Positions 1,223 to 52,170 of a stretch of 64,000 nucleotides of DNA are shown here, piece by piece (position 1 is the first letter of the stretch; the number at the start of each line of letters is the position of its first letter). Below the pieces are notes generated by a model, which was given only the letters and a program-made list of their open reading frames with translations, did not search any database and had not been told where the DNA came from. A program made the translations under genes and the position numbers. The stretch comes from Bdellovibrionota bacterium. Its GTDB lineage: Bacteria > Bdellovibrionota_C > UBA2361 > OMIW01. The stretch covers positions 320 to 64,319 of the forward strand of contig JBIIHQ010000003.1 of the NCBI GenBank assembly GCA_044235645.1, written 5' to 3'.

Positions 1223-1909
1223 CTATCCAATCGTCTCCGTGCGAGTCACGGAGAACGACGGCAGCAAACTACCTATTCCCGACACATTACGCATTCTCGA
1301 CTGTACCGCCCCGTCGAAGTAGCCAGTCGCTGCGACCGTCACTTTGCGGTACTTGCCCAGTCGAGGCTCAACCCCCACATCAACCGGGCTATCATCATAC
1401 CTTACCAACAAATGAACCCGGGTCAGACTCGACGAGCCCAGCGAGGAAATGATGAACTGCCCCATCGTCGTCATGGTTATCCAGGCCCCACAGGCGATAT
1501 CGTTCTGCCCACCCATGCAATTGCGCGAGCCCTCAGGTATCGCGTTCGACAGAGTCCAGTTATAAGTACCCCCATTGGCATCCGGAATAAACGTGACCTC
1601 AAACTGCCGCTGCGCGCCTGTCGATGTCATCGTCGGAGTCGGACGTAACCCATTCCCCAGTACTGCCTGGTTGACAGCCCACGATACCGCTCGGCTCGAC
1701 TGATGCAGCGTGTTTGTTGCAACGATACCGACGAAGCCGGCAATCGCAGCTGGCACCAGCAATGCCGACTCAACAAGCGCTGCACCTCGTTGGCGTCCTC
1801 CTGAAGACCTGAGAGACCTCGGGGAACTAAGCGTTTCTAAAGCCTTCGCGCCCTTCAAAAAGACCCCCTGTTCTTTCCGGGTGTTTGTCTTCATTCCCTC
1901 CTCCCTCAT
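1223..1909 (-). CDS. TadE/TadG-like pilus assembly (pseudopilin-like) protein
   Basis: 228-aa ORF. The N-terminal ALVESALLVPAAIAGFVGIV segment matches the hydrophobic motif of the TadE-like family. The gene lies between two other pilus-like genes on the same strand. Confidence 0.5.
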   Translation of the reverse strand: MREEGMKTNTRKEQGVFLKGAKALETLSSPRSLRSSGGRQRGAALVESALLVPAAIAGFVGIVATNTLHQSSRAVSWAVNQAVLGNGLRPTPTMTSTGAQRQFEVTFIPDANGGTYNWTLSNAIPEGSRNCMGGQNDIACGAWITMTTMGQFIISSLGSSSLTRVHLLVRYDDSPVDVGVEPRLGKYRKVTVAATGYFDGAVQSRMRNVSGIGSLLPSFSVTRTETIG

Positions 1910-1960
1910 TAACCCAATCTGACACAGTCCATAGGTCGCAGGCTTCGATCGCTTCCCTCA

Positions 1961-3652
1961 TCAAGGTTGATTCTGAATAAGGCCTGGCACCCCACTTCCC
2001 GCACAATTTTGCCATTCATAGACGTAGTATCTACATTGATTGCACAGCGAGTCGTCTGTTGTGCCCGGAACTAAACATCCTGCCCCGGATTGAACGCACG
2101 TCGGTGTTGTCCCTCCATCACCCGCCGACTTAATGAAGTGCTTACCGGCCCAATGACAGGAGGTATTGCACTGACCATCGGAGTCCTCGTGATTTGAACT
2201 ATTTATACGTATTCCCGACCCATTATCACACATTTTGACACAAGACTTCGTGATATAACTTTCGTTTCTTCTATTCCCACAAAAATCCTGCTCCCATGTG
2301 GGCTGCCTGTTGTTCATGTTACTGTCACAGGTATTCGCCCAGGGGCCAGACTGCGACGACCAGCCACCCCGATATTCGGTAGTCTGATTTCTTTTGTTGC
2401 CACATGCGTCCTGCTCCCACCGCAGTCGCGATTGCTTTCCCTCTGTATTACAGCTTGTCGACCAGAGGCCATACTGCGTATTCCACCCACACGAGCTATC
2501 ACTCGCACGACAACCCGCCACCTCCGTATGGTTCCTGTTCGGCTGGCACCCCCCCCTATCGCGTTCCCACCTCCATTGACGCCGCTTTCCATCGGCTTCG
2601 CAGTAAGGGCTCCACTCTCTATTCGGATTATCTTTGCCCCAGCCGGACTGGAGCTGATCAAAGCACGGCTGACACCGCGACTCCGAAATACCCGACGAAT
2701 TACCACAGGAGTCGCTGTATGAGTTCGTCCTCGTTCCGGGACCACACTCCGCGCTCCAAGCCGACCAGCTACCTGATGATTGTCGCGGCTCACAACTCGG
2801 AGCCGTCACTGGCTGAGCCACCTGAGGATAGAACGGCACGGCCATCACCATCGGATACGAACCCACAATTCCTTTCACCTCGACCACTGCGACTACTTCG
2901 GTCGGCAGCTTAGTGCTCACTGAGGAAAGACTATTCCATGAACCTAGCTCAGCGGCCGGCACCTTGATTATCCGACAGGTTCCCCGCCCCCCAGCCCGGC
3001 TGGTGCTGGGTTGTGCCTCAGAGTCCCTGAGACCTTGCAGCCTCTTTCGCGCATTAAACCTATCGTGCGCCCCCTCCATCTCCGTCTCTGAAGCTGTGTT
3101 AGCACTAGCGACCACCCCACACGCATGATAATTATTGAGAGATGCCCAATTACTAGGGCCCTCGTTCCAATCTTCTACTAATGCCGAAGTCAACGGCGGC
3201 AGATACCCAAAGTTAAGCTCCTCGAGCCTCGCCTCGGTACCAAGCCGGTCAAGGTGCCTCACTTTCTTGAACGACACTCCTCCAACACCCGACATCGCCG
3301 ATGCAAACCTATCAGATAGACTTTTACGCGCCGTTTTGAATGCCGTATACTCGGGCCCCTCCCCCCTGTTCCAAAAATCGCCCAAGAGAGCCTTATTCCC
3401 TCGAGCATCATCGACAAGCTCGGTAAGCTGATGGTAAGCGCTGTTGTACCGATGCATTACCACGAGGGGTTCGGCAACCCCGACCCCCAGCGCGACCACC
3501 ATAGGTGTCACAATCGCAGCCTCAAGGAGCTGAGCACCGCGCTCCGCTATCCTCGCCAAAGCTCCTCGCGTCTTCGTTGTTCGCTTACCTGCCATACCGA
3601 GCCTCGTCTCCCTACGTTCTACATCGTGGCAGCACGGAGGTGTTACAGACAC
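1961..3652 (-). CDS. Large TadE/TadG-like protein with C-terminal Cys/Trp-rich repeats that resemble thrombospondin type-1 repeats
   Basis: 563-aa ORF. The real start is probably the internal Met at about 3595 (MAGKRTTK...). The N-terminal LLEAAIVTPMVVALGVGV segment is a TadE-like motif. The C-terminal half contains WSAWSAECGPG followed by three units of about 38 aa: RWERDRGGCQPNRN, RWEQDACGNKRN and TWEQDFCGNRRN. Confidence 0.55.
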   Translation of the reverse strand: MSVTPPCCHDVERRETRLGMAGKRTTKTRGALARIAERGAQLLEAAIVTPMVVALGVGVAEPLVVMHRYNSAYHQLTELVDDARGNKALLGDFWNRGEGPEYTAFKTARKSLSDRFASAMSGVGGVSFKKVRHLDRLGTEARLEELNFGYLPPLTSALVEDWNEGPSNWASLNNYHACGVVASANTASETEMEGAHDRFNARKRLQGLRDSEAQPSTSRAGGRGTCRIIKVPAAELGSWNSLSSVSTKLPTEVVAVVEVKGIVGSYPMVMAVPFYPQVAQPVTAPSCEPRQSSGSWSAWSAECGPGTRTNSYSDSCGNSSGISESRCQPCFDQLQSGWGKDNPNREWSPYCEADGKRRQWRWERDRGGCQPNRNHTEVAGCRASDSSCGWNTQYGLWSTSCNTEGKQSRLRWEQDACGNKRNQTTEYRGGWSSQSGPWANTCDSNMNNRQPTWEQDFCGNRRNESYITKSCVKMCDNGSGIRINSSNHEDSDGQCNTSCHWAGKHFIKSAGDGGTTPTCVQSGAGCLVPGTTDDSLCNQCRYYVYEWQNCAGSGVPGLIQNQP

Positions 3653-6303: not shown

Positions 6304-8952
6304 TTACACAACGACATTTACCAGTTTGTCCGGAACAACGATCATTTTCCGGATATCCTTTCCATCGCACCACCTCCCGACCGCCGGGTGACCGCGAACC
6401 GCAGCTTCAACCTCTTCGCGAGGCGTGCCCGGCGCAGCGGTGATCTCACCCCGCAGTTTTCCGTTCACCTGGATCACGATCGTAATCATGTCCTCCTTCG
6501 CTTTCTCGAGATCCCCGACCGGCCATTGCGAGCAGTGAATACTTTCCCCCTCGCCTCCTCGATGCCACAACTCCTCAGTAATATGGGGGAAGATCGGCGC
6601 CATCAGCTGAAGAAGGGTACGACACGCCATCCGCCATACGGGCTTGCTCACCGAACCACGCTCACGCGAGAGAAGATTCGCAAACTCCATATACCCGGCG
6701 ATCACGGTGTTGAACCGAAAATCGGAGAGACCCTCGGTCGCCCGGATAATCAACTGGTGCATCCGACGTTCAATAAGGATATCGGCCTTCCCGGGACCAG
6801 ACGCCGCCCCCTCTGAGAGTGTTCCCTCTTCGAGAACCAGCCGCCACGTCCGATGAAGAAAGCGAGAGATCCCCTCAATCGCGCTCGGGTCCCACGGCCC
6901 TCCCTGCTCCCACGGGCCAAGGAACATCAGATACCCCCGTACCGTATCGGCTCCATAATCCCGCACGTAATCGTCCGGATTGACCACATTACCCCGGCTT
7001 TTCGACATCTTCTCGTTGTCTGGACCCAGCACCATTCCCTGATTGACCAGCCGAATCATGGGCTCGGAAAAATCGTACAGCCCGATATCTCGGAGTGCCT
7101 TTGAGAAGAAACGCGTGTATAGAAGATGCATCGTTGCATGTTCTATTCCCCCAGTGTACTGGTCCACCGGTGCCCAGTACGAAAACGCCTCTGGATCCCA
7201 CGGCGTATCATCACGATGGATAACCGCCCCCTTCTTCCAGTACGGGGAGATGTACCCGTACTGATACCAGCTCGAGCAGAGGAAAGTATCCATCGTATCG
7301 GTCTCTCGCTCTGCCGCGTTACCACACCGCGGGCACGAAACGTGGCGAAAGCTGGGGTGATATTTGAGAGGGCTTTCTCCCGTCGGCTTGAAGGCAGCAT
7401 CATCGGGAAGAGTGACCGGAAGTGATTCGTATGGAACCGGCACTTCACCACAGCCGGTGCAATACACCATCGGGATTGGGGTGCCCCACATCCTTTGACG
7501 GCTGATCAACCAATCCCGCAGCCGATACGAAATCGTACGCTTTCCAAAACCGCACTCCTCTATCCACTCCGCGATGCGTGGTATCGCCTCTGCCACCGGG
7601 GTACCAGTGAAGGGACCACTAGCAACGAGCGTCCCCTCAGTTTTTGATGAGTAGGCACCGGTCGAGGCGCTGCCCCCCGCCGGGGGTTCGATAACGGTGA
7701 CTATCGGGAGGGAGAATTTATGCGCGAATTCGTAATCGCGGTCGTCGTGGCCCGGTACTGCCATAATCGCGCCCGTCCCGTATCCCATCAACACGTAATC
7801 GGCGACCCATACCGGTACTGGTTGGTTCGTTGCGGGATTAATCGCATACGCCCCGGTGAACACCCCCGTTTTTTCCTTGTCGGTCGCCGTTCTCGTTCGT
7901 TCGTCGAGACGCTGAGCTGCTTCGACGTAGTCGGTGACCGCGGAGCGGTACGACGGAGGAGTGAGAGCGGAAACTGCGGGGTGCTCTGGGGCAAGTACCA
8001 GGAAAGTCGCTCCCCAAAGGGTGTCCGGACGGGTGGTAAAAACGGTGATAGTACTCCCCTCCCGACACTCTGCGGTCGGCGGTACTGAAAAGACAACCTC
8101 AGCCCCTTCACTTCTCCCGATCCAGTTCGTCTGCATCGTCTTGACCCGCTCGGGCCACGCGAGGGTTCCCAGTTCAGTGAGCAGCTCCTCGGCGTACCTC
8201 GTGATCCGAAACTTCCACTGATTGAGCTCCTTCTTAACGACCGGGCTGTCGCATCGCTCGCAGAGCCGCTCAACCCCCACGACCTGCTCACGCGCAAGGG
8301 TAGTATTGCAACTGGGGCACCAATCAACCGGCGCAAATTCACGATACGCGAGCCCCGCCTCGTAAAGCCGCAGGAAGAGCCACTGGGTCCATTTGTAATA
8401 ATCGGGGTCACACGTCACTACCTCATGATCCCACGCCCACATTGCCCCCATCTGCCGGAGCTGTCCCCGCATCCGCGCAATGTTGTCGTAGGTCCATTTC
8501 TTGGGGTGGAGATTGTGCTTGATAGCTGCGTTCTCGGCGGGAAGGCCAAAAGCATCGAAACCGACCGGGAAAAATACATTATACCCCTGCATCCGGCGAA
8601 ATCGGGCCGCTGCATCAGAGGGGGTCATCGCGTACCAGTGGCCCGCATGCAGATCCCCCGAGGGGTACGGCAGCATCGTCAGGGCGTACCATTTCGGGCG
8701 CGCGGGGTCGATCCTCGTTCGGTCGATACCCTGCTCTTCCCACGTGGCGTGCCATCGCTGTTCGACTGATTGGTGATCATACCGTTCGCTCATGAGTGTT
8801 CCGTGGGAAAAGGTATTTAGAATAGTGAACAATATCAGGAGGCTCCGCGACGGGCTTCGACTGGACCGAAGCATGGCCACAGCCGACGAGCAGAATCGAG
8901 GGAGAAGGTAAGTCAACCCACGCATCGAGCCATCTTGGTCGAACTGTAGCAC
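6304..8952 (-). CDS. leuS: Leucyl-tRNA synthetase
   Basis: 882 aa. The N-terminus (QRWHATWEEQGIDRT...KWYALTMLPYPSGDLHAGHWYAMTPSDAAARFRRMQGYNVFFPVGFDAFGLPAENAAIKH) carries the class-I HIGH-type motif, and the full-length architecture is that of LeuS. Confidence 0.95.
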   Translation of the reverse strand: MLQFDQDGSMRGLTYLLPRFCSSAVAMLRSSRSPSRSLLILFTILNTFSHGTLMSERYDHQSVEQRWHATWEEQGIDRTRIDPARPKWYALTMLPYPSGDLHAGHWYAMTPSDAAARFRRMQGYNVFFPVGFDAFGLPAENAAIKHNLHPKKWTYDNIARMRGQLRQMGAMWAWDHEVVTCDPDYYKWTQWLFLRLYEAGLAYREFAPVDWCPSCNTTLAREQVVGVERLCERCDSPVVKKELNQWKFRITRYAEELLTELGTLAWPERVKTMQTNWIGRSEGAEVVFSVPPTAECREGSTITVFTTRPDTLWGATFLVLAPEHPAVSALTPPSYRSAVTDYVEAAQRLDERTRTATDKEKTGVFTGAYAINPATNQPVPVWVADYVLMGYGTGAIMAVPGHDDRDYEFAHKFSLPIVTVIEPPAGGSASTGAYSSKTEGTLVASGPFTGTPVAEAIPRIAEWIEECGFGKRTISYRLRDWLISRQRMWGTPIPMVYCTGCGEVPVPYESLPVTLPDDAAFKPTGESPLKYHPSFRHVSCPRCGNAAERETDTMDTFLCSSWYQYGYISPYWKKGAVIHRDDTPWDPEAFSYWAPVDQYTGGIEHATMHLLYTRFFSKALRDIGLYDFSEPMIRLVNQGMVLGPDNEKMSKSRGNVVNPDDYVRDYGADTVRGYLMFLGPWEQGGPWDPSAIEGISRFLHRTWRLVLEEGTLSEGAASGPGKADILIERRMHQLIIRATEGLSDFRFNTVIAGYMEFANLLSRERGSVSKPVWRMACRTLLQLMAPIFPHITEELWHRGGEGESIHCSQWPVGDLEKAKEDMITIVIQVNGKLRGEITAAPGTPREEVEAAVRGHPAVGRWCDGKDIRKMIVVPDKLVNVVV

Positions 8953-9151
8953 ACCCCTCAGGAATGTGCATAGGAAACAGGAGGATAGCCGAGGTTTGCG
9001 GAGGACAATCGGAGCGGGATGTCATCGAGAGAAGGTCGGACCGGTTCATATCCGCCTATCTACAGATTTTTTTGGTGAAACCAGAAAATAAAGTCGGTCC
9101 AGTACGATACGTGGCAGGTTTCGCACGCATAACTTTCAGCGAAGGTTGGAG

Positions 9152-9198
9152 TTGGACTTGTTGAGTGAAGTGCTGAACAAGTCCAATTTCTTTTTTAT
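9152..9198 (+). terminator. Intrinsic terminator (11-bp perfect stem, U-tract)
   Basis: The sequence ttggacttgtt / gagtgaagtgctg / aacaagtccaa is followed by tttcttttttat. Confidence 0.6.
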
Positions 9199-9647
9199 GG
9201 TTCTGTCAAACGTCGCTGTCGCTGCAGCCAACGCAATGCGGTGGACAATCGAGGATGCTGATCAGGCGCACGCCGAGGGTTACAGGAAAACCATCTGTGA
9301 ATTTTTCGGGGGAAGCCTCCCATTCTATTGGCAACACCTAGGCCAATGTCTAGAAAGTCGGACCACGCCGATGAAGATATTGTCGGGTGGCGAGATCGGG
9401 TTGGCCCCCTGTACCGGCGATTGACCTGGGCGAATTCCTGTTAGCCCTGAGTCTCGAGTCCGGCGGCAACCGTCGCCTTGTGGTGCTCACTAATTCCTCA
9501 CGTCCCTCCCTCGTTGGAGTTGTTCAAGAGGAACCGGAGCCGAAACAAGATTCCGCAGGTATGACAGCCTGGGATCGCAGTTTGACCTCGGTCATGGCTC
9601 AGAATGCGACGAAGCTGGGCCAGGTGATCGAATAACGCGACCGTCCC

Positions 9648-9692
9648 CCCTCCATGAGCTCATACGAAGCTCATGGAGGGCCTTTTTTCTCC
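9648..9692 (+). terminator. Intrinsic terminator (12-bp perfect stem, U-tract)
   Basis: The sequence ccctccatgagc / tcatacgaa / gctcatggaggg is followed by ccttttttctcc. Confidence 0.7.
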
Positions 9693-9812
9693 TCCCTGCC
9701 GGAACGACGACCGTTTCGAACCACTTACTCAAAATAACGAAACTCATATCCCAGCCTCCAACCGTGTGATACCCTTCTCCGGTCAACAGCAACCCTTTCA
9801 GCCCATCACCTC

Positions 9813-10460
9813 ATGAAACCAGAACACTTTCGAGCTCACCCCTGGCATGGCGTCACCCCCGGCGATCGATGCCCCGAAGTTGTCACGGCCTATATCGAGA
9901 TCGTTCCGACCGACACGGTCAAGTTCGAAGTAGACAAGGCCTCTGGGATCCTTCGCATCGACCGGCCTCAGCGATATTCGAATATCTGTCCTGCTATGTA
10001 CGGCTTCATTCCTCAGACGTTGTGTGGTGATCAGGTGGCAAAATTGTGCGTGGACGCACTCGCCCGTACTGGTGCCGACGGTAGCGCTCACGCCTCGATT
10101 GTCGGTGACGCCGATCCGGTTGATATCTGTGTTCTCACCGAGCGCGTGGTGCATCATGGAGATATCCTCGTCAGCGCCCGTCCGATTGGTGGCCTCCGTC
10201 TCGTCGACAAGGGAGAGGCAGATGATAAATTAATCGCGGTGCTCGAGGGAGATCCCGCATTCGACAACTGGCGCGATATCACCGACTGTCCCGCTGCGCT
10301 TCTCAATCGGCTCTCGCACTACTTCCTTACCTATAAGCTCTCCCCCGAAACGATGGTGTCACAATGTCAAATCGTCGAAACGTTCTCCCGCGCAGAGGCG
10401 TACCGAGTGATTGAGGCGAGCATCGGCGATTATCGATCGAGTTATTGGGGAACGCGGTAA
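9813..10460 (+). CDS. ppa: Inorganic pyrophosphatase (family I)
   Basis: The N-terminal HPWHGV...EIVPTD..KFEVDKASG...DRP...YPAMYGFIPQTLCGD run is the soluble PPase signature. Confidence 0.85.
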   Translation: MKPEHFRAHPWHGVTPGDRCPEVVTAYIEIVPTDTVKFEVDKASGILRIDRPQRYSNICPAMYGFIPQTLCGDQVAKLCVDALARTGADGSAHASIVGDADPVDICVLTERVVHHGDILVSARPIGGLRLVDKGEADDKLIAVLEGDPAFDNWRDITDCPAALLNRLSHYFLTYKLSPETMVSQCQIVETFSRAEAYRVIEASIGDYRSSYWGTR

Positions 10461-44847: not shown

Positions 44848-45156
44848 TTGACCGCAAGGGGTTTACTGGCTAGAGTCATCGAGACGTGCAGGTTAATGAT
44901 GACGGATTCAATTTCAGGGAAGGTCACAGAAATACGCAGGGACCTCATCTCCTTGAGGTTCGGGGCCATTACGCTGAAACTTAAGGTTAACAGGAATCTC
45001 TTGGCGGGCATATCCGTTGGAGACACCGTGGACATCCTCAGCACCGATGATTCTGGCGTCGTGCAGAAAGTTACAGTTGCGACGGGCGTTAAAAAGGGCC
45101 CTCCCTCGCCCTCAATAATCGGTCGAGTAGCTACCGATCTCCGCAAGACAGAGTGA
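44848..45156 (+). CDS. Small TOBE/Mop-like domain protein (tentative)
   Basis: SISGKVTEIRRDLISLRFGAITLKLKV...GISVGDTVDILSTDDSGVVQKVTV follows the beta-rich TOBE pattern. The gene lies immediately upstream of the 991-aa orphan gene. Confidence 0.3.
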   Translation: MTARGLLARVIETCRLMMTDSISGKVTEIRRDLISLRFGAITLKLKVNRNLLAGISVGDTVDILSTDDSGVVQKVTVATGVKKGPPSPSIIGRVATDLRKTE

Positions 45157-45220
45157 CCTTTGCTCTTTTCGGAGGAGCTCCCCCGGAGCTCTTCCTTTTC
45201 TCATCAACCAGCAGCAGTAC

Positions 45221-48196
45221 ATGAATTCTCCCGCACCTCTCCAGTGTCCGTCTCCTTATCGTCTATTCACTATCCACCCCTCCGGTCTCTCTAAAGGAGA
45301 CTACCAACCCAAATCTTCCCTCTCTGCTCCCTGCCTTCCCCCTGGTAACACGCCGATCGAAGACCTCCCCCCGTTTGTTCAGCGGATCGCTGAGGCCTTC
45401 TCAACCCGACAGGCACTCCTCGCCTATGCGCGACATGTGGCTATTGGCGGGCGCGACGTTCGTCCGACTCTCCCCCTTGCAACCCACTGGATTGATGCCC
45501 TTGATGGAACGAACCTGATAGCTCTGAGGGACGGCAATCCATGGCAGGCTGACGCTACCCCCTCCTCCGACACTCATTACCGATCGTTCCCCGCATCGGT
45601 TCTCTGTTATGAGAGCCATCTCGCTGAATTCAGGTACGACTGGGAACGCAGCTCACGATTATTTCTCTTGAGACTCCCCGATAGCGAGCACCAGGAGATT
45701 CTTGCAAACTGTTCGGATGGCCCCAGACCGACCGTTCCAGAGGCGTTTGGTTATCTGAGATACACCACACAATCGGACGGATCTATCTGTATCTTAGAGA
45801 TTCACAACGAACTTTTCGGTCGACTTACCTCGAGCATCCTCAAGGAGCAGTACCAAGACTGGGCGGTCGAACTTCTTGATGGCTTCACCCAATATGTCGC
45901 GCGTGCTGCCGATATAGTGAGCGTTATCGTCAAGCCCGAGGACGCCCAACGTTTTAATAAAAATCTGACCCGAACCATCATCATTCCCCCAGCGTCAATG
46001 ATGGAGGAAAGGTACGGCGATCTCGATTGCGGGCGCCCCACCCCCTGGGCGCAGCAGAACGAGGATGGCCTCTGGTATCTACCAGGGATAGACACCGCGC
46101 AGATCGTCGAACGATACGTTGAAGCACCGACCCGATTGGGATTTGAGCAGCAGACCCTCGAGGGCTCTTTTTTTGCTAATAAAGAGGAGCTACCCCGAAT
46201 AACCGAGGGACTCATCCTCAAGGTACTCTCTCCCCACTCAGACCGAGTAGTTCCGAAAAACACTCTCATCACCGAGCTCCTCCATCGCTGCTCTGCTGCC
46301 CCACCCGCAAGTCCTTCTCACAACAAACTTGATTATTTTAAACGGGCGGCGGAGGTTCTTTCGTCATATATCAACGGTGGCGACATCGAATCACCCCGCC
46401 TTCTGAGGACACTCTCGGTGCCGTCGGTGAGACCCAACGCACTCACGCTAGCCCCCTCCTTCGAGGTAGCCCCCGCTTTCACCGTCAGCCTTGAGGAGAT
46501 AATTCCGCCCTCCCTCGTCCAGGGTCTGAGGGAAAAATCTCCTGAATTCGCCTCTCATCTCCGCGAACTAACCGCGGTCCTTAACCGCCTCATCGATCCG
46601 AACTTCACCGTCATAAGCCGAGGATTCCAAGGGGGCATGGCCGATGATTGGGCTGAACTACCAGATCCTGAGCTTCCTCCGGGTTGCTACCTCTTTTTCG
46701 TCCAAGCACCTCATCAGAATAGACACCCCTCAATCCGAGTGGTGGTTGTCGATGATTCGAAAAACCATCGTATGTACTACCTGGGAATTAAGGGAGCAGG
46801 GATCGCCGAGCTCGGCGGCTGGCCCGTCCATAAACCCGGAACGGGAGAACGTGCCCCGATCTATCGAACAGAAGGAAAGGATTCATTCGATCGGGCACCG
46901 TGGTGGGGTGGACTGACCTCTGTCGAGGCTCTTGAAGAAGCCCGCTATTCGCTCGCCCTTGCGACCCATCTCGCTGAGTTTCTTCCACACCTCGCAGACC
47001 GGGCATTAATCCCCCTTCGTCTCTCACTTCCCACCATGCTTCCCACCTGGAGCGAGAGCGACACGAGTTGGCAACTTCCGGAAGACTATGCCACGACGGT
47101 GCTCTCTCTCGGCCGACAGAGCTCAGCGCCTCCTGAGATTCACCAAGGCGAATCACCTAAGGAAGCCTCCGACCGCACCCAAAGCGTTACCATCGCGGGG
47201 GGCGAAGATCTCAACATTCTCGACCAGGTCGTCCGAGACACCGAAACCCTGCCTTCAGCACCGGATGAGGCCGCCATCATAGGACCCAGCAATCTGCTTG
47301 AGGACTACCCTGTCGAGCATCTCGTCGTACCGGAGGCATCGCCACAACCTGAACCGCCTCCCCCCGAGCTTGCTACCCTTATCTCAACCTTTCCAAGCGA
47401 CGTTCGTATCCACACCTTTTTCGATCGCATTTTCAATGGACCGCGGAATCAAGACACCCCTTTCGATCCCATCCGAGATATCAACAAGACGATGCGGTTC
47501 CTCTACAATGTGCATGGATTCTCTCTGAATGAACCAACCGAGCAGTACGTTCCTCCTGACCTCATCCTCGACCCGCCCGCGATCTGCGAATATCTCGCGA
47601 TAATTGCCGAACTCAACAAGGAAAACGCCCAAGAGATCTACCGACGAGTCTGCGGTGACACCCTCGCGATCATCGAATCAGTTCACCACCGAGGCGGTCA
47701 TCTTGGCGGAGGGCGAATCGAGCCAACGCTGGGGGTAATAGTAGGTGCGAGGAACGGGGGTGTGACCGCGATGAGAAACATCGATATCGGAGGGGGAAAT
47801 CAGAGCGGAAAAGGGGCGGGCATGCACGACGTCAGCGCATTATGCTACTTTCCATGGATGAACTCCCCGAGGGATCATTCCGACGATCAGTGGTACCACC
47901 AGCAGTACCTCAACACGCTTCAGGCGTTTGACCTCAGCTATTGGGCTGAAATGGAGCAATGTATGCGCATCTTTCTCACTGGCGCTCCGTATGAGAAAGG
48001 CGCCCGATGGATACGCCACCAGCTGACCGCCCTCAATGACGTCACCCTCTACTCCGCAGCCCCCTCAACCTCCAACATCCTGGCGGCAGCAAAGCTTATT
48101 CAAGAAGCCGAGCAGACACGAGCGCGCGTATCGATCGATGAAGTTAAAGGGCTTGTTATCCCCTCGGTGCTCCATCTCCTTTTCTCAGACTCATAG
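45221..48196 (+). CDS. Large orphan protein (991 aa) with a Gly-rich segment near the C-terminus. It belongs to a locally repeated gene family.
   Basis: Long uninterrupted ORF. No known domain recognised. Its C-terminal region (HHRGGHLGGGRIEPTLGVIVGARNGGVTAMRNIDIGGGNQSGKGAGMHD...) has a degraded paralogous copy at 50228..50690. Confidence 0.6.
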   Translation: MNSPAPLQCPSPYRLFTIHPSGLSKGDYQPKSSLSAPCLPPGNTPIEDLPPFVQRIAEAFSTRQALLAYARHVAIGGRDVRPTLPLATHWIDALDGTNLIALRDGNPWQADATPSSDTHYRSFPASVLCYESHLAEFRYDWERSSRLFLLRLPDSEHQEILANCSDGPRPTVPEAFGYLRYTTQSDGSICILEIHNELFGRLTSSILKEQYQDWAVELLDGFTQYVARAADIVSVIVKPEDAQRFNKNLTRTIIIPPASMMEERYGDLDCGRPTPWAQQNEDGLWYLPGIDTAQIVERYVEAPTRLGFEQQTLEGSFFANKEELPRITEGLILKVLSPHSDRVVPKNTLITELLHRCSAAPPASPSHNKLDYFKRAAEVLSSYINGGDIESPRLLRTLSVPSVRPNALTLAPSFEVAPAFTVSLEEIIPPSLVQGLREKSPEFASHLRELTAVLNRLIDPNFTVISRGFQGGMADDWAELPDPELPPGCYLFFVQAPHQNRHPSIRVVVVDDSKNHRMYYLGIKGAGIAELGGWPVHKPGTGERAPIYRTEGKDSFDRAPWWGGLTSVEALEEARYSLALATHLAEFLPHLADRALIPLRLSLPTMLPTWSESDTSWQLPEDYATTVLSLGRQSSAPPEIHQGESPKEASDRTQSVTIAGGEDLNILDQVVRDTETLPSAPDEAAIIGPSNLLEDYPVEHLVVPEASPQPEPPPPELATLISTFPSDVRIHTFFDRIFNGPRNQDTPFDPIRDINKTMRFLYNVHGFSLNEPTEQYVPPDLILDPPAICEYLAIIAELNKENAQEIYRRVCGDTLAIIESVHHRGGHLGGGRIEPTLGVIVGARNGGVTAMRNIDIGGGNQSGKGAGMHDVSALCYFPWMNSPRDHSDDQWYHQQYLNTLQAFDLSYWAEMEQCMRIFLTGAPYEKGARWIRHQLTALNDVTLYSAAPSTSNILAAAKLIQEAEQTRARVSIDEVKGLVIPSVLHLLFSDS

Positions 48197-48976
48197 AGGC
48201 TCCCTCAACAAGTACAGCATCTGGAGGCGGGATTATCGCTAAATAGGACTTATCCTCAATCAAAACAGTATCTGAGCCCTCCATCTCTTCTTCTCAGACT
48301 CATAGAGGTACGCCCCGACACTGGCACAGCCATTGGGGGTGAGAACCTCTATCGGTGGGAGAATAAATAGCCAAGTGGCTATAACTTTGGAACAAATTGT
48401 AAAACTCAGCGCCGCGCCGACCCGCATTTTCTCTCGCTCGTGTGCTGCTCGAGCTTGGGCAATTTTTTTGGGGCCCCCGAGACGCGCTTTGTCGGCTCGG
48501 GGGCTTATTCACCCTCTCACTCTCAACTTTCTCTCTTTCCCAGAGACTCTGCCAGACGTATCCGAACTGCGTTGCGACCCATTGTCCCCTCCATGTGGCC
48601 TCTACAGCGGGATAGCTGGAGGATGAGTACATGGTGGCACAGATGAATGGCATGAGTGCCGACGCAGCTTCTTCGGGCAGTGTGCCGGGGTACTTTAACA
48701 CGAGTCGAGGTCCCCCCGCGTCGTCGCCTATTCTCCAGGTTCGCCGATTATCGGACAGCTGGAAGGCCACCGAAGAGGCCAAAAGATCTTGAGAAATATC
48801 ACCAAGAATTTCAACGAACTCTTCTTTCCGGGACGGAAGACAAACCAGTTTTTTCATTTTCTTTTGAAGAAAATAACCTCCGAAGTATCCGCCGCCCAAC
48901 GCCGAAAAATCAACCCCTCCCCCCAAAAAACCTCTCTATCTCAGACTCATGGAGATTCCCCCACACGAGCACAGCC
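48180..48976. repeat. Three dispersed copies (48180..48199, 48284..48331, 48931..48976) of the terminal ~45 bp of the 991-aa gene plus its immediate downstream sequence
   Basis: The motif tc.tctcagactcat.gag...cccc.aca..g.cacagcc is seen directly three times. Confidence 0.6.
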
Positions 48977-49173
48977 GCTGAGGACGGGAATCAGGAGCTT
49001 TTTTCCAAAAACGCCCCGATGGTTTGGGGGGATTGGGATTTTGATGCTATCAAAATCCGCTATTCCCGGAATTTTTTTGATAAAAAGAGCTTTGAAGGTG
49101 TGGCTCTCCGAGCGCGGCTGAGAGTCGCGGGTAGGAGAGGGAATTTTAAACGGCCGTTTCCCGAAGGGACGCC

Positions 49174-50169
49174 TTAGGTCATCGGCCAAACGTAAGGACG
49201 ATACGTGCCTTCGGGGAAATCAACGGAGAGATCCCCACTTCGGTACGCTTCAGAGGCGGCTTTAAACCGAAAGTAGATATCGAAGTACCACGCTTTCATC
49301 TCGGCGCGACGAATGTTGCACGCCGATAGGACACGAGGGCGATGAGTGGTAGGGCTCGAGGTTCTTGTGGATTTTGGTAACGAGCCTGGCTTGATTCGTT
49401 TAAGGGCGGTTCGACCGAGAAAGCGCTTCCCCTCAGCAGCTCGGGCTTTGAGGATCTCTTGACGACGTTCCTCAAGCCGACGAGTCATGAGGAGGGCGTA
49501 CTCCTTCTGGGAGAGCTTTTCGTAGCCGGGGAGACGGGCGTATTGAAGGGTGAACTCCTCGAGAAAATCTCTCTTGTTGACCTTTTTCCCCCACCGAGAG
49601 GCTTTGTAGTAGGCGGTCCAGTTCATGACCTTAAAGGTTCTCTTTATCCCCCACACGGCGTCATGGAAGCAGTTGTAGCCAGGGTAGTCAGAGATTTTTT
49701 CAACAAGGCCATCCTTGACCGGCTGGAGGACGGCGTAAAAGAAGTAGTTCTCGATATCAGTGCGGTCCGCGAGAAACTCGTTTGAATATCTTCTGCCCCA
49801 GACACCACCGCCCGAATATGAGGGTGTATATCGGGGGACGGCGCGGGCTATCGTTGATTTGAGGTCACGCAGGAAGTGGGCGCGATTATTCTTGTTGTTA
49901 TGCGCGACGATGTGCAGGTGGTTGCCCTCAATAGCAAAGCCGTAGAGGGTGATCGTACGCCGAGTGGCGTACTTGGCAGTCAGCCCAAGAATCCGCTGCT
50001 CGAGGGATTCGTTGTTGACGAACCAGAGACGCGAATCTCTGGTTCGACTCGTGATAAAGTCTGAGTGTTCGTTCGTTTCGATGCGGGGATGGCAGCCCAT
50101 CGGTGTTGTCCTCCGAGAGAGATAAAGTAGATCTCTCTCGGTTCGACACGTTGAAGAAATAGTTGCCAA
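49174..50169 (-). mobile_element. IS200/IS605-family HUH (Y1) transposase-domain protein, long form (331 aa)
   Basis: LYGFAIEGNHLHIVAH provides the HuH motif. YAVLQPVKDGLVEKISDYPGYNCF matches the Y..NPVKAGLV..DYPWSS catalytic-Tyr helix of Y1/RAYT transposases. The gene is flanked by repeats and by a pseudogene fragment. Confidence 0.7.
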
Positions 50170-50227
50170 AAAGTGGGGACATTTCTCTGAAAATGAAGCA
50201 GGATTCCACTGGGTCCCCTCTCCTCAG

Positions 50228-50690
50228 CCGTCCCCTCAATCTGGCGAAGCAGCTCAAGAACATATATGAATTTTCCCTGAATAACCCAATCGAGTAGTAC
50301 GTTCCTCCTGAACTCATCCTCGATCCGCCGGCGATCTGCAAATATCTCACAATGATTGCCGAAATTAAGGAGAAGATCGCCGGAGGGATCATTCTGATTA
50401 TCCGTGGTATGACCGGTAGTACCTTAACAACCTTCAGGGTTAGATCTCAGCTATTGGACTGAAATGGAGCAATCTGTGCGGATCTTCCTCGCTGGCGCTC
50501 CGCATGAGAAAGGAGTCCACTGGGTAAACCACTAGGTGACAGCCCTCAATGACGTCACCCTCCACTCCGCAGCCCCCTCAACCTCCAATATCCTGGCGGC
50601 AACGAAGCTCATACAGGAAGCTGAGGAGACACGAACACGCGTTCTATCTTACAAGATAAGGGGGCTCGTCATCCCCTCGCTCCGATAGCC
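50228..50690 (+). pseudogene. Decayed, internally deleted copy of the 3' end of the 991-aa gene
   Basis: Roughly 80-85% nucleotide identity to 47500..48196 by eye. Several stop codons are present, and about 190 bp encoding the Gly-rich segment is deleted. Confidence 0.65.
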
Positions 50691-50748
50691 CTCAAATATA
50701 TTCCTCTTGATCAGGAATTTGTGGGGAATGCGAACATCATCGATTAAT

Positions 50749-52170
50749 TCAGGGGCTCTCCTGATTGGCTGAATCAAGTCCTGCGGACGTTGAGCCCTGT
50801 TCCAATTCTTCAGAGGTAATGCTTCGGAAGTGTTGCTGAAGAACGTAGTCCAACTCGAGCCCGAATGAAACCTCTGAGCATCGATAAAATACGGCGATAT
50901 CGGCCTGAAGTGCCTCTCTCAACGCCTTGCAGGTTTCAGAAAATTGGTCTGATTCGATTACATCTCGGGATAATCCGTCAAAATCATCAATTCGAGACAT
51001 GTCAATCGCCCCTTCCCGGAGAGAACAATCAAAACTTGCTTTCACCACATCAGCACCCTGACCGCTGTCCACCATCAGGACCATCAACCGCCCGAATTGC
51101 GGCACTTGACCCCCGATATAATGCCATTCGGTCAATGTGACGATCTCGTTGGTAATCGCGATTCGTTGCTCCGCCTTCAGAAGAAGATCCTCTGCTCGCT
51201 GCTCAAAGCGCGCAAGCGCCACATCAGTGGCCCTCTTGAGCTGAATCGCCATCGATTGCTGTTCAGGATTCGCAACCACCTCATCTGTCGGAGCTTTAGC
51301 AGCAGGCAAAAGGAGAGACGCGATCTCACTTCCCGCAAGCAGATGGCTCTCAATGACCTGCGGAAGCTTTTTTCTTACCTCCGCTATCTGACGTTGACGG
51401 GCATCGATAAGGGCGTCTGGCCGAAGTTGCACCTTTGGATCATCGGGGCGACCCACGCCACTATCGAGCCACGCAAAATCCTCCTCAATCATCGCTGCCG
51501 CCAACGCGCATGAAAGCGCCTCTCTGAGCGCCCGCGCCGTTTTTACCGAGGGGGCGCGCTCATGCAGCTCTTTGAGGACCTCCAACATCTCCGGGTTTGA
51601 ACCAGGCACCAGGTTATGGATCGCCCGTATATCGGGCACCGTCGAACCCCCCAAAAGTTGCTTGATATCGAGCCCCGCCGAAGAGGATGAGATGATTGGC
51701 GTACCTGTCTTACTCCTGAGTTCGGCCGGAAATGAATCGAGCAGCTCGTCATATGCAGCGCGGCCCTTCGGATCAATCAACGTATCCTTTGCCAACACCA
51801 ACACCGCCAACCTTCTCTGACCATCTTTTTCGTAATCGGTACCCTGTAATTTATTGGGGTTTACTCCTTTCACCTTCTCCCTAAACGCACTCTTAATCGC
51901 ATCCGCATCCGCATCTCGCAAAACCCCGAGAACTGCATAAAAATCAGTCACATAGTCCACTCCATGCTGAGGCTCACCCCTCCGCTCGTTTCTCGCACAT
52001 TCTTCATCTGTCGCCGACCCACTCCTCGATTCGCCAGAGGCGGGAATCGATGGAAGGTGTGCTGCTCCAAAATCCCCCTCTCGCGATGAGCCCTGAGTGT
52101 TCATTATCTCCGAAGTCATGAGATCGACTAAAACCTCTCGCGACGAGTCTTCCTGATGATGATTGTGCAT
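50749..52170 (-). CDS. J-domain-like protein with a degenerate HPD motif (NPN) and a long C-terminal domain of unknown function
   Basis: DFYAVLGVLRDADADAIKSAFREKVKGVNPNKLQG...LAVLVLAKDTLIDPKGRAAYDE follows the J-domain helix II-III pattern, but HPD is replaced by NPN. Confidence 0.45.
   Translation of the reverse strand: MHNHHQEDSSREVLVDLMTSEIMNTQGSSREGDFGAAHLPSIPASGESRSGSATDEECARNERRGEPQHGVDYVTDFYAVLGVLRDADADAIKSAFREKVKGVNPNKLQGTDYEKDGQRRLAVLVLAKDTLIDPKGRAAYDELLDSFPAELRSKTGTPIISSSSAGLDIKQLLGGSTVPDIRAIHNLVPGSNPEMLEVLKELHERAPSVKTARALREALSCALAAAMIEEDFAWLDSGVGRPDDPKVQLRPDALIDARQRQIAEVRKKLPQVIESHLLAGSEIASLLLPAAKAPTDEVVANPEQQSMAIQLKRATDVALARFEQRAEDLLLKAEQRIAITNEIVTLTEWHYIGGQVPQFGRLMVLMVDSGQGADVVKASFDCSLREGAIDMSRIDDFDGLSRDVIESDQFSETCKALREALQADIAVFYRCSEVSFGLELDYVLQQHFRSITSEELEQGSTSAGLDSANQESP

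Follow-up and report, generated by a model that had tools for sequence, protein, structure and literature searches.

Positions 44848 to 50690 of a 64,000-nucleotide stretch of DNA from a Bdellovibrionota bacterium (GenBank assembly GCA_044235645.1, contig JBIIHQ010000003.1, positions 320 to 64,319 of the forward strand; hereafter the window) contain a gene for a 991-residue protein, a Y1-type transposase gene, three copies of a short motif, one of which forms the end of the large gene, and a damaged partial copy of the large gene farther downstream. The locus is probably the scar that a transposon left on a single-copy, vertically inherited gene. A preliminary description, made from the sequence alone, had offered two explanations of the pattern, namely a multi-copy family undergoing toxin-like turnover of its 3' ends, or a hotspot reused by a mobile element. 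The second idea agrees with the results reported here, as the end of an intact element, a solo end and an inverted doublet of ends are found at one locus. The first was not borne out: there is one syntenic ortholog cluster, and the C-terminal half of the protein is conserved.

The core of the motif, TCTCAGACTCATAGAGG, occurs on the plus strand at 48183, 48292 and 48939. These are its three matches in the window, all of them within the locus; 0.07 matches are expected by shuffling, and none of 100 shuffles reached three. The copies share about 50-70 nt. The preliminary description was right in counting three copies, but the sequence that it took for the terminal ~45 bp of the large gene belongs to the element. 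The homology that relates the intact gene, the downstream fragment and the gene of a sister species fails in all of them right after ...ATCCCCTCG (48166). From there on, copy 1 encodes the last 10 codons of the gene (one junction codon and VLHLLFSDS, followed by TAG), replacing the tail found in the sister species, LVYPKNDPTYRLETDL; the ancestral tail that was replaced comprised 17 codons. Copy 1 is closest to the right-end variant of a related element at another locus, L027 (71 nt at 82%). In copy 2, which is an inverted doublet, the arms match at 27 of 38 positions, a score reached by none of 1000 shuffles, and the DNA folds at -14 kcal/mol (z -1.2). For copies 1 and 3, single-sequence folding gave nothing better than shuffled sequences do. 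Scanning for the 18-mer TTCTCAGACTCATAGAGG returned four single chance matches, in unrelated metagenome-assembled genomes, from a collection of genome contigs, and six single matches, of which only that in L025 was related, from a collection of metagenome contigs; the window's genome is in neither collection.

Comparison with other loci accounts for the motif. Transposases 84-88% identical to that of the window at the protein level are encoded at five loci (L025, L027, L028, L030 and L031), of which L030 and L031, alike in their upstream sequence, seem to represent a single locus obtained from two samples. The motif is found 211-222 nt past the transposase stop codon in all five, in the same orientation, and copy 3 is found 219 nt past the stop codon in the window. 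In L025, which was retrieved by the metagenome scan for the motif, the transposase gene is 78% identical at the DNA level, with the motif about 210 nt past the stop. Because the motif keeps a fixed distance from 84-88% identical transposases in loci with unrelated flanks, these alignments show the "terminal ~45 bp" to be the tip of the right end of an element of ~1.26 kb, and not gene sequence. The preliminary description had asked whether element boundaries coincide with the repeat copies; copy 3 does sit at the right-end tip.

The loci cease to be similar just past the motif; on the other side, similarity begins ~100 nt upstream of the ATG. The left-end block upstream of the ATG is conserved in all homologous loci, and its hairpin, GAGAGAG/CTCTCTC, is kept with four compensatory pairs just before the ribosome-binding site. 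Hairpins of the right end are weak (covariation term 0.15). A 305-residue homolog of the transposase (P0023, 66% identity) is encoded by a unit of 1255 bp, as identity between its copies ends at -102 and +235, and on these boundaries the element of the window would therefore extend over ~48930-50193. The ends of the P0023 unit look like imperfect inverted repeats (15/19) that start exactly at the boundary, as seen in L037. Small duplications occur at right-end tips: a 15-nt tandem duplication (GATGATCTCTTTATC x2) is present in L028 (positions 2985-3030) and an 11-nt duplication in L037. Right-end tips thus seem prone to slippage.

The transposase gene had been described as IS200-like, and a Y1 gene is indeed present on the minus strand. 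Its start is most likely at 50100, which gives a protein of 308 residues (49174-50100); exact look-up found the 308-residue version on record and no match to the 331-residue version of the full open reading frame. The protein scores 23.0 bits against PF01797 (Y1_Tnp), at a cut-off of 23, and the L025 homolog scores 24.9. The HUH motif corresponds to H61-L62-H63, and Y122, which we take to be the catalytic nucleophile, falls on the Tyr in the YIxxNPVK helix when aligned to E. coli TnpA_REP (PDB 4er8), a structure matched weakly overall (E=0.012). The features that define the Y1 HUH superfamily (a PF01797 gathering score, the HUH motif and the Tyr) are all present. The match to NF047646 (REP_Tyr_transpos) has an E-value of 4.8e-15, covers residues 6-140 only and reaches 55.7 bits against a cut-off of 80; the transposase is related to RAYT proteins but is not an equivalog of NF047646. 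We found 587 homologs, many of them on contigs of 1.1-1.3 kb, which carries little weight as a sign of multiple copies since most contigs of the collection are short. Relative to homologous elements, the ratio of nonsynonymous to synonymous substitution rates (dN/dS) of the transposase gene is 0.04-0.14, indicating strong purifying selection. In this species the gene occupies a single locus, represented by 15 contigs that all show one synteny.

Elsewhere, members of this family adjoin or cut short other genes. In L027, an unrelated 251-residue open reading frame beside the right end has an identical LLFSDS* tail. In L025 (JGI contig Ga0172376_10060810), a Cas12b gene (1224-2906, minus strand; PADLOC PDLC01657, E=9.4e-39) is cut short at its 3' end inside the right end of the element, where it ends in another frame as ...RGLSFARIEQPRISFSQTHRGSPEMSATRLRY*, its C-terminal part being gone; its 5' end runs off the contig. 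PADLOC alone identified this large reading frame as Cas12b, and no Pfam or PDB sequence match was obtained for it. It seems that the element inactivated a CRISPR effector of type V-B. Given the fusion of copy 1 to the 991-residue gene, the shared tail in L027 and the cut cas12b of L025, the element evidently moves, interrupts genes and bears stop codons at its tip. At the P0023 loci (L037-L046), an identical transposase is associated with at least three combinations of flanks (a ketoacyl synthase gene or a 406-residue gene upstream, an HhH-GPD or a transaldolase gene downstream), and short tandem repeats are abundant there. These mixed flanks reflect either the presence of several copies in a genome or their recombination with one another. 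Closely related units in at least four contexts, the exact ends of the P0023 unit and the interruption of a gene (cas12b) are what is generally expected of an insertion sequence. Two unannotated reading frames converge on the element in L027, at 7152-7907 (the 251-residue frame) and at 8269-10356 on the minus strand (695 residues).

The partial gene copy that had been placed downstream of the transposase gene by eye, at 50228..50690, is real, but its span is 50253-50679. As aligned with a repeat finder and MAFFT, it corresponds to positions 47501-48166 of the gene, with 79.9% identity over 427 shared columns (78-85% in individual blocks). It contains three in-frame stop codons, a 1-nt deletion that shifts the frame and a 238-nt deletion (~47629-47866, residues ~804-882) that removes the Gly-rich region of the protein, a loss already recognised in the preliminary description. 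The alignment shows the fragment to be, by all its marks, a decayed pseudogene duplicate of the 666-bp 3' part of the gene. Over the same 427 columns, identity to the sister species is 70.0% for the fragment and 81.7% for the intact gene, and three-way site patterns group the intact copy with the fragment at 56 sites, the intact copy with the sister gene at 64 and the fragment with the sister gene at 14. Synonymous divergence (dS) is 0.50 between fragment and intact copy and 0.83 between orthologs, and the differences of the fragment are less concentrated at third codon positions, which indicates a relaxed codon-position bias. Most simply read, the duplicate would have originated in this lineage later than the species split, with neutral decay since. 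Neither the tail of the fragment (50680-50748) nor the filler that precedes it (50191-50252) has significant similarity to the sister species or to the gene. An impression, gained by eye, that the fragment keeps the ancestral tail was withdrawn, as the match in question (16/24) failed a shuffle test.

The 991-residue gene itself is single-copy and vertically inherited. A word-indexed search of 5.8 billion proteins returned the gene product and one cluster of 935-residue orthologs (72-75% identity) only, and a further word-indexed search with the family profile found the same two proteins and nothing more. No paralogs are present among the 5.8 billion proteins; the label of orphan gene does not hold strictly, as 54 distant relatives were detected with HMMER. 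At the loci of the sister species (L001, L005 and L006, the last from GCA_900299205.1), the gene follows the same small open reading frame and is followed by DnaJ, PGM and photolyase genes on the opposite strand. The distance from the gene to the DnaJ gene is 166 nt in the sister species versus 2552 nt in the window, and no element, transposase, motif or fragment is present in the three sister loci. The preliminary description had been prepared to give up the multi-copy status of the gene should relatives hold it as a single copy in conserved synteny, and this is what was found. Nor does composition set the gene apart, as its GC content is 55.7% and the window mean 55.8%, instead of the ~50% and the contrast with its surroundings that had been reported. 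With a dN/dS of 0.20 overall and 0.13 for the C-terminal part, the gene is to all appearances functional and under purifying selection. A paper about the bacterioplankton of Amazonian black waters cites one sister-species sample, SRR1522973.

Eleven contigs assembled independently from other samples (JGI, ENA and Logan) show the arrangement and are 99.5-100% identical to the window, so that it is real and has become fixed within this population. That it arose in assembly, through a chimeric join or a collapsed repeat, is next to impossible. Assemblers can be led astray by repeats of 30-70 nt, the contig L015 stops right at copy 2 and the contig L014 is without the 109 nt between copies 1 and 2, but differing samples and pipelines gave one order throughout the locus at the identity stated. 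L014 carries a single hybrid of copies 1 and 2 in place of the two, with several changes in the arms of the copy-2 doublet, and L015 terminates exactly at 48279. These differences suggest gain or loss of a unit via recombination between 30-nt repeats; at 48170-48308 they resemble a polymorphism of the population or else an ambiguity in assembling the repeat.

Strain variation is distributed unevenly over the locus. Among 10 strain contigs, the 1175 nt at 48926-50100, which comprise the transposase gene and the right end, contain no variable site. The number of variable sites per kb is 1.7 in the 991-residue gene, 4.8 in the PGM gene, 8.4 in the DnaJ gene, 8.7 in the spacer between copies 2 and 3 and 9.2 in the photolyase gene, and it rises up to 33 in copies 1-2. 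The lack of variation at 48926-50100 may reflect a recent sweep or, alternatively, strong constraint.

We suggest the following history. The ancestral state would have been that of the sister species, with the small open reading frame, a gene of ~935 codons and the converging DnaJ-domain gene 166 nt away. In the lineage of the window, ~2.1 kb (48167-50252) was inserted at position 48166 of the gene, an event that postdates the species split if the sister species does show the ancestral state. The core of the insert is the ~1.26-kb insertion sequence-like element, encoding the 308-residue transposase between conserved left and right ends. Copy 3 is part of this intact element, copy 2 is an inverted doublet of ends, and copy 1 is a solo end that continues the reading frame of the gene. 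The fragment may be a by-product of recombination mediated by the element, through unequal exchange between element copies at two sites, through the Campbell-type integration of a circle that was excised with the element and flanking gene DNA, or through a tandem duplication from which one element copy was subsequently lost. The layout, in which gene positions up to 48166 are followed by the insert and then by gene sequence from 47501 to 48166 and beyond, fits the three routes alike.

Several results weigh against this reconstruction. An exact empty site is lacking, and the junction at 48166-48174 is set by comparison with a sister species that is only ~80% identical. As inverted repeats, the ends of the window element match at only 13/18 positions, and 137 of 1000 shuffles do as well. 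The placement of the fragment in the ancestral position with a tail of its own depends on the non-significant 16/24 match. The absence of variable sites across 48926-50100 could point to constraint at the level of the host, that is to domestication, instead of a selfish element. Finally, the count of motif copies, like that of transposase copies, applies to the 64-kb window rather than to the genome.

Such domestication would imply that the Y1 gene is maintained by the host as a RAYT or TIRtron and that the motif copies are its cognate repetitive extragenic palindromic (REP) or terminal inverted repeat (TIR) sequences, serving the convergent genes for instance as terminators or mRNA stabilisers. 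The single locus in the species with its 15 contigs of the same synteny, the invariance of gene and right end among strains, and an intact reading frame with the HUH motif and Tyr all speak for it. Moreover, solo and doublet repeat units are grouped next to the gene, as in REPtrons and TIRtrons (PMC3733652), and in 5/5 other loci the right end points towards the 3' end of a gene that converges on it. We nevertheless consider it quite unlikely, as the element is absent from the sister species, near-identical genes reside in unrelated contexts, one of them interrupting cas12b, an identical homolog has several flank combinations, the motif is found nowhere else in the window and the NCBIfam cut-off for RAYT equivalogs is not reached. 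A different account would make the fragment the resident 3' end, left in place when a diverged, element-carrying allele arrived horizontally and was joined by illegitimate recombination. It would explain why the two copies differ by 20% when strains differ by no more than 0.5%, and why the fragment adjoins the DnaJ gene as the ancestral 3' end does; the sequence past the junction of the fragment is also nearer to the sister species than that of the intact copy, though not significantly (16/24). Neutral decay alone, however, explains the long branch and the weakened codon-position bias, a molecular-clock reading puts the split of the copies after speciation, and the protein searches found no second diverged lineage of the gene, so that an imported allele is rather unlikely.

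The turnover of 3' ends known from polymorphic toxins and effectors, by which a multi-copy family exchanges its C-terminal cassettes, the fragment then being an orphan cassette or a displaced one, is very improbable here. A partial 3' copy downstream of a full gene does recall orphan toxin cassettes, and the protein is large and without annotated domains. However, the gene and one syntenic ortholog cluster are all that was found among 5.8 billion proteins, the fragment repeats the same sequence at 80% identity with stop codons and offers no alternative C-terminus, and across 35-45 family members the C-terminal half is conserved and the N-terminal half variable, which reverses the pattern of a toxin cassette. 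No candidate immunity gene lies between the large gene and the element, and the repeated motif belongs to the transposon. Variable C-termini, orphan cassettes and an immunity gene, by which polymorphic toxins are recognised, were not found, and the analogy fails on every defining feature tested. The scar of a transposon on a resident gene is the reading that we retain.

Among known systems, the element is best compared with TIRtrons and their TIRYT transposases (Di Nocera et al. 2013, PMC3733652) and with long TnpA_REP proteins of subclasses 2.1 and 2.3 (Quentin et al. 2018, PMC6006769). Its transposase is, likewise, a RAYT-like HUH/Tyr protein of ~310 residues with a large C-terminal extension, and in length and extension it resembles the long TnpA_REP subclasses; the median length is 325 residues in subclass 2.3, and long subclasses have been reported without REP-like flanks (PMC6006769). 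Similarly, the element of the window is not flanked by classical GTAG REPs and has conserved ends at fixed distances from the gene (+211 to +222 and about -100). Solo, dimeric and clustered end repeats beside RAYT-like genes have been described for TIRtrons (PMC3733652), and a solo (copy 1) and a doublet (copy 2) end copy are found nearby in the window. The end motif with its G/C runs (GGGGACAT, GGGGGAAT) resembles the published GGGGWSAS, which it matches only partly. In contrast to TIRtrons, the ends of the window element show a weak, non-significant inverted-repeat relation (13/18), an element end continues the reading frame of a host gene, and the composite insert is bordered by host sequence duplicated over 666 bp.

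In IS200, a subterminal hairpin is located just before the ribosome-binding site. IS200/IS605 elements have such hairpins at both ends and insert 3' of a specific target of 4-5 nt, which is not duplicated. The window element shares with the IS200/IS605 family a Y1 HUH transposase that matches Pfam Y1_Tnp at threshold, a compact layout whose left end bears a conserved subterminal hairpin and the absence of long terminal inverted repeats, and for a related element there are signs that at least one genome has several identical copies. It differs in that the transposase is twice the size of TnpA_IS200 (308 versus ~150 residues) and scores better on the RAYT model, that tnpB is missing and that this species has the element as a single copy. 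Classical REP/RAYT systems (REPtrons and REPINs of Escherichia and Pseudomonas) likewise combine a transposase homologous to TnpA_REP (4er8) with short hairpin-forming repeats beside the gene, one of which is in this case an inverted doublet like a REPIN. Unlike in these systems, where REPs of a high-copy family spread over the genome flank the gene on both sides in inverted orientation, the repeats of the window lie on one side only, downstream of the transposase gene, and number three in 64 kb; the element is absent in the sister species, occupies unrelated contexts elsewhere and interrupts genes, and the transposase falls below the NCBIfam equivalog cut-off. The vertical inheritance of a single copy, congruent with the host phylogeny, that characterises classical RAYTs does not apply to this transposase. 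The order gene (1..b), element, gene (a..end), with a direct duplication of a..b, is that expected of truncation by an insertion sequence with flanking duplication; intermediates, however, were not observed at the locus, and the route is a reconstruction. We know of no documented case of such truncation and flanking duplication for Y1/RAYT-type elements.

From left to right, the open reading frames of the locus comprise a small frame and the 991-residue frame on the plus strand, a 208-residue frame and the transposase frame on the minus strand, and the convergent DnaJ-domain gene, also on the minus strand (Table 1). Scans of the locus with Rfam and for promoters and terminators gave nothing above chance.

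Table 1 Coordinates of the features of the locus, as positions in the window.
Feature	Position	Strand	Remarks
Small conserved open reading frame	44899..45156	+	85 residues from ATG; listed reading frame begins at TTG 44848
991-residue gene	45221..48196	+	Single-copy, vertically inherited; sparse uncharacterised family
Predicted kinase-like N-lobe, residues ~485-632	46673..47116	+	QNRHPSxR, GxKGxG (invariant K524), PIY, WGG, conserved Glu at residue ~573
Disordered, indel-prone linker, residues 633-710	47117..47350	+	Predicted local distance difference test (pLDDT) <50; 56-residue indel between two orthologs
Gly-rich segment, residues 822-870	47684..47830	+	VHGxGGHLGG ... RNxDxxGxxHD(870), most conserved motifs of the family
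Right-end copy 1, solo right-end remnant	48167..48240	+	Supplies the last 10 codons and the stop of the gene
Right-end copy 2, inverted doublet	48288..48367	.	Arms 27/38 matching; resembles a REPIN or the hairpin of a MITE (a miniature inverted-repeat transposable element)
Spacer between copies 2 and 3	48368..48925	.	Holds most of the 208-residue minus-strand reading frame (48300-48926)
Right end of intact element	48926..49173	-	Copy 3 at tip, core 48939-48955
308-residue Y1 (HUH) transposase, RAYT/TIRYT type	49174..50100	-	Listed reading frame 49174-50169
Left end of element	50101..50193	-	Conserved hairpin 50113-50141 just upstream of ribosome-binding site
Filler between left end and gene fragment	50194..50252	.	
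Pseudogene fragment	50253..50679	+	Decayed duplicate of gene positions 47501-48166
DnaJ-domain gene, convergent	50749..52170	-	

The statement of the preliminary description that the 991-residue protein has no recognisable domain holds, as no match was obtained in Pfam, NCBIfam or PADLOC. None of 35 family members matches Pfam, and a profile search of PDB sequences came back empty, with no SelO. The 54 distant relatives mentioned above were obtained at E<=1e-3 when 1.84 billion cluster representatives were searched exhaustively with HMMER; most of them are 850-1000 residues long, and homology extends mainly over profile positions ~450-880. When 35-45 members are compared, the C-terminal half is conserved and the N-terminal half is variable. 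Conserved motifs of the family comprise QNRHPSxR, GxKGxG, PIY, WGG, DVR, VHGxGGHLGG and RNxDxxGxxHDxD. R501, K524, R729 and D870 do not vary, and conservation is at least 90% for H822 and N853 and at least 80% for a Glu near residue 573.

The AlphaFold2 model of the whole protein has a pLDDT of 72.6, with values near 90 at residues 410-630 and 715-990 and a disordered linker at 633-710. A model of the kinase-like domain reaches a pLDDT of 82.7 and a predicted template modelling score (pTM) of 0.83, and the bilobal fold that characterises the protein-kinase-like superfamily is seen in the predicted structure. On these models, the protein appears to consist of a GNAT-like domain and an atypical, SelO-like domain of protein-kinase fold. 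We propose that the Gly-rich segment, which in this species carries an 8-residue insertion (GNQSGKGA), may provide the loops that serve catalysis and metal binding in the kinase-like C-lobe; it would be the most conserved part of the predicted active site. The linker (47117-47350) is rich in Pro, Glu and Ser and is predicted to be disordered; orthologs differ in it by a 56-residue indel.

SelO is a protein adenylyltransferase of kinase fold, an AMPylase that binds ATP in a flipped manner and transfers AMP. As in SelO and in atypical kinase-fold enzymes such as HopBF1, an invariant Lys is found in the GxKGxG strand and a conserved Glu on the following helix, and the canonical HRD aspartate is missing. 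The Asn...Asp pair is spaced by 9 residues with a Gly at +5, as in the DNxxxxGxxxD motif of SelO. The only stretch aligned by hhalign, in a match that is non-significant, sets RN-x-D-xx-G-xx-HD of the family over DN-msll-G-ltl-D of SelO, with an Asn-to-Asp spacing of 9 in both. The corresponding metal-binding residues of P. syringae SelO are N253 and D262 (PMC8097203). From their order and spacing and from this non-significant stretch, we infer that K524, the Glu at ~573, N853 and D870 may be equated with the respective kinase residues. Unlike SelO, the family has a Gly-rich loop of its own (VHGxGGHLGG plus the insertion) ahead of the Asn, the two lobes of the 991-residue protein are separated by a disordered linker of 78 residues, and its N-terminal 480 residues are family-specific, with models that also give GNAT-like matches. 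Some results speak against the kinase assignment. A Foldseek search of the PDB with the full-length model gave nothing significant, the best match (E 0.23) being to a GNAT protein, and the comparison of the family with E. coli SelO by hhalign was not significant (probability 0.2%). Together with the Pfam (0/35) and PDB profile searches, the latter result places the family outside the SelO (UPF0061) sequence profile, and the assignment draws on predicted structures.

The small open reading frame upstream of the gene is called as 85 or 86 residues in other assemblies. An 89-residue ortholog occupies the same position in the sister species, with a dN/dS of 0.34. It had been regarded as TOBE-like and as a possible partner of the large gene; no significant TOBE match was obtained, the best match, to RuvA_N (E=0.016), being below the cut-off and other OB-fold-like matches sub-threshold. 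Upstream of three distant family members no homologous frame is present, and a role as a family-wide partner was discarded. The neighbourhoods of distant family members are unrelated to one another, with no conserved partner. On the other side of the gene, the DnaJ gene is its conserved convergent neighbour in both species. The DnaJ protein has 473 residues, of which the J-domain (residues 76-141) is the sole recognised part, the other ~330 being unannotated. A chaperone-client relation between the DnaJ protein and the kinase-like protein is conceivable.

The ~560-nt spacer between copies 2 and 3 is similar neither to the fetched loci nor to the transposase by tblastn, blastn or tblastx. A decayed transposase and ancestral intergenic DNA were both considered as its origin (48350-48925) and set aside on these comparisons. 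The 208-residue reading frame (48300-48926, minus strand) almost exactly fills the spacer, has a Gly-rich N-terminus and a TTG start, and is called as a gene in some pipelines. It has no match in Pfam, NCBIfam or PADLOC, the large protein database not having been searched with it, and is probably not a real gene.

The explanation of the locus is mundane: an element of the RAYT/TIRYT type struck the 3' end of a resident gene, with the ordinary damage that transposons cause. The combination of a big unannotated gene, a repeated terminus and a partial downstream copy, which resembles the genomic pattern of toxins, is in this case the footprint of a Y1 transposase, a useful negative result, and toxin turnover can be separated from such an element by asking whether the repeat at the "gene terminus" keeps a fixed distance from a transposase in other genomes. 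For long RAYT-like transposases (TIRYT, subclass 2.x), the literature gives no identifiable REP-like ends, and their mobility is unsettled. Here, ends could be defined ~100 nt upstream and ~235-245 nt downstream of the gene. Such ends, the interruption of cas12b and the occurrence of identical copies in several contexts argue that at least this clade of transposases would constitute a working insertion sequence. As for the resident gene, the rare family to which it belongs, with its predicted SelO-like kinase fold and an unusual Gly-rich active-site region, offers a testable hypothesis for a set of hypothetical proteins.

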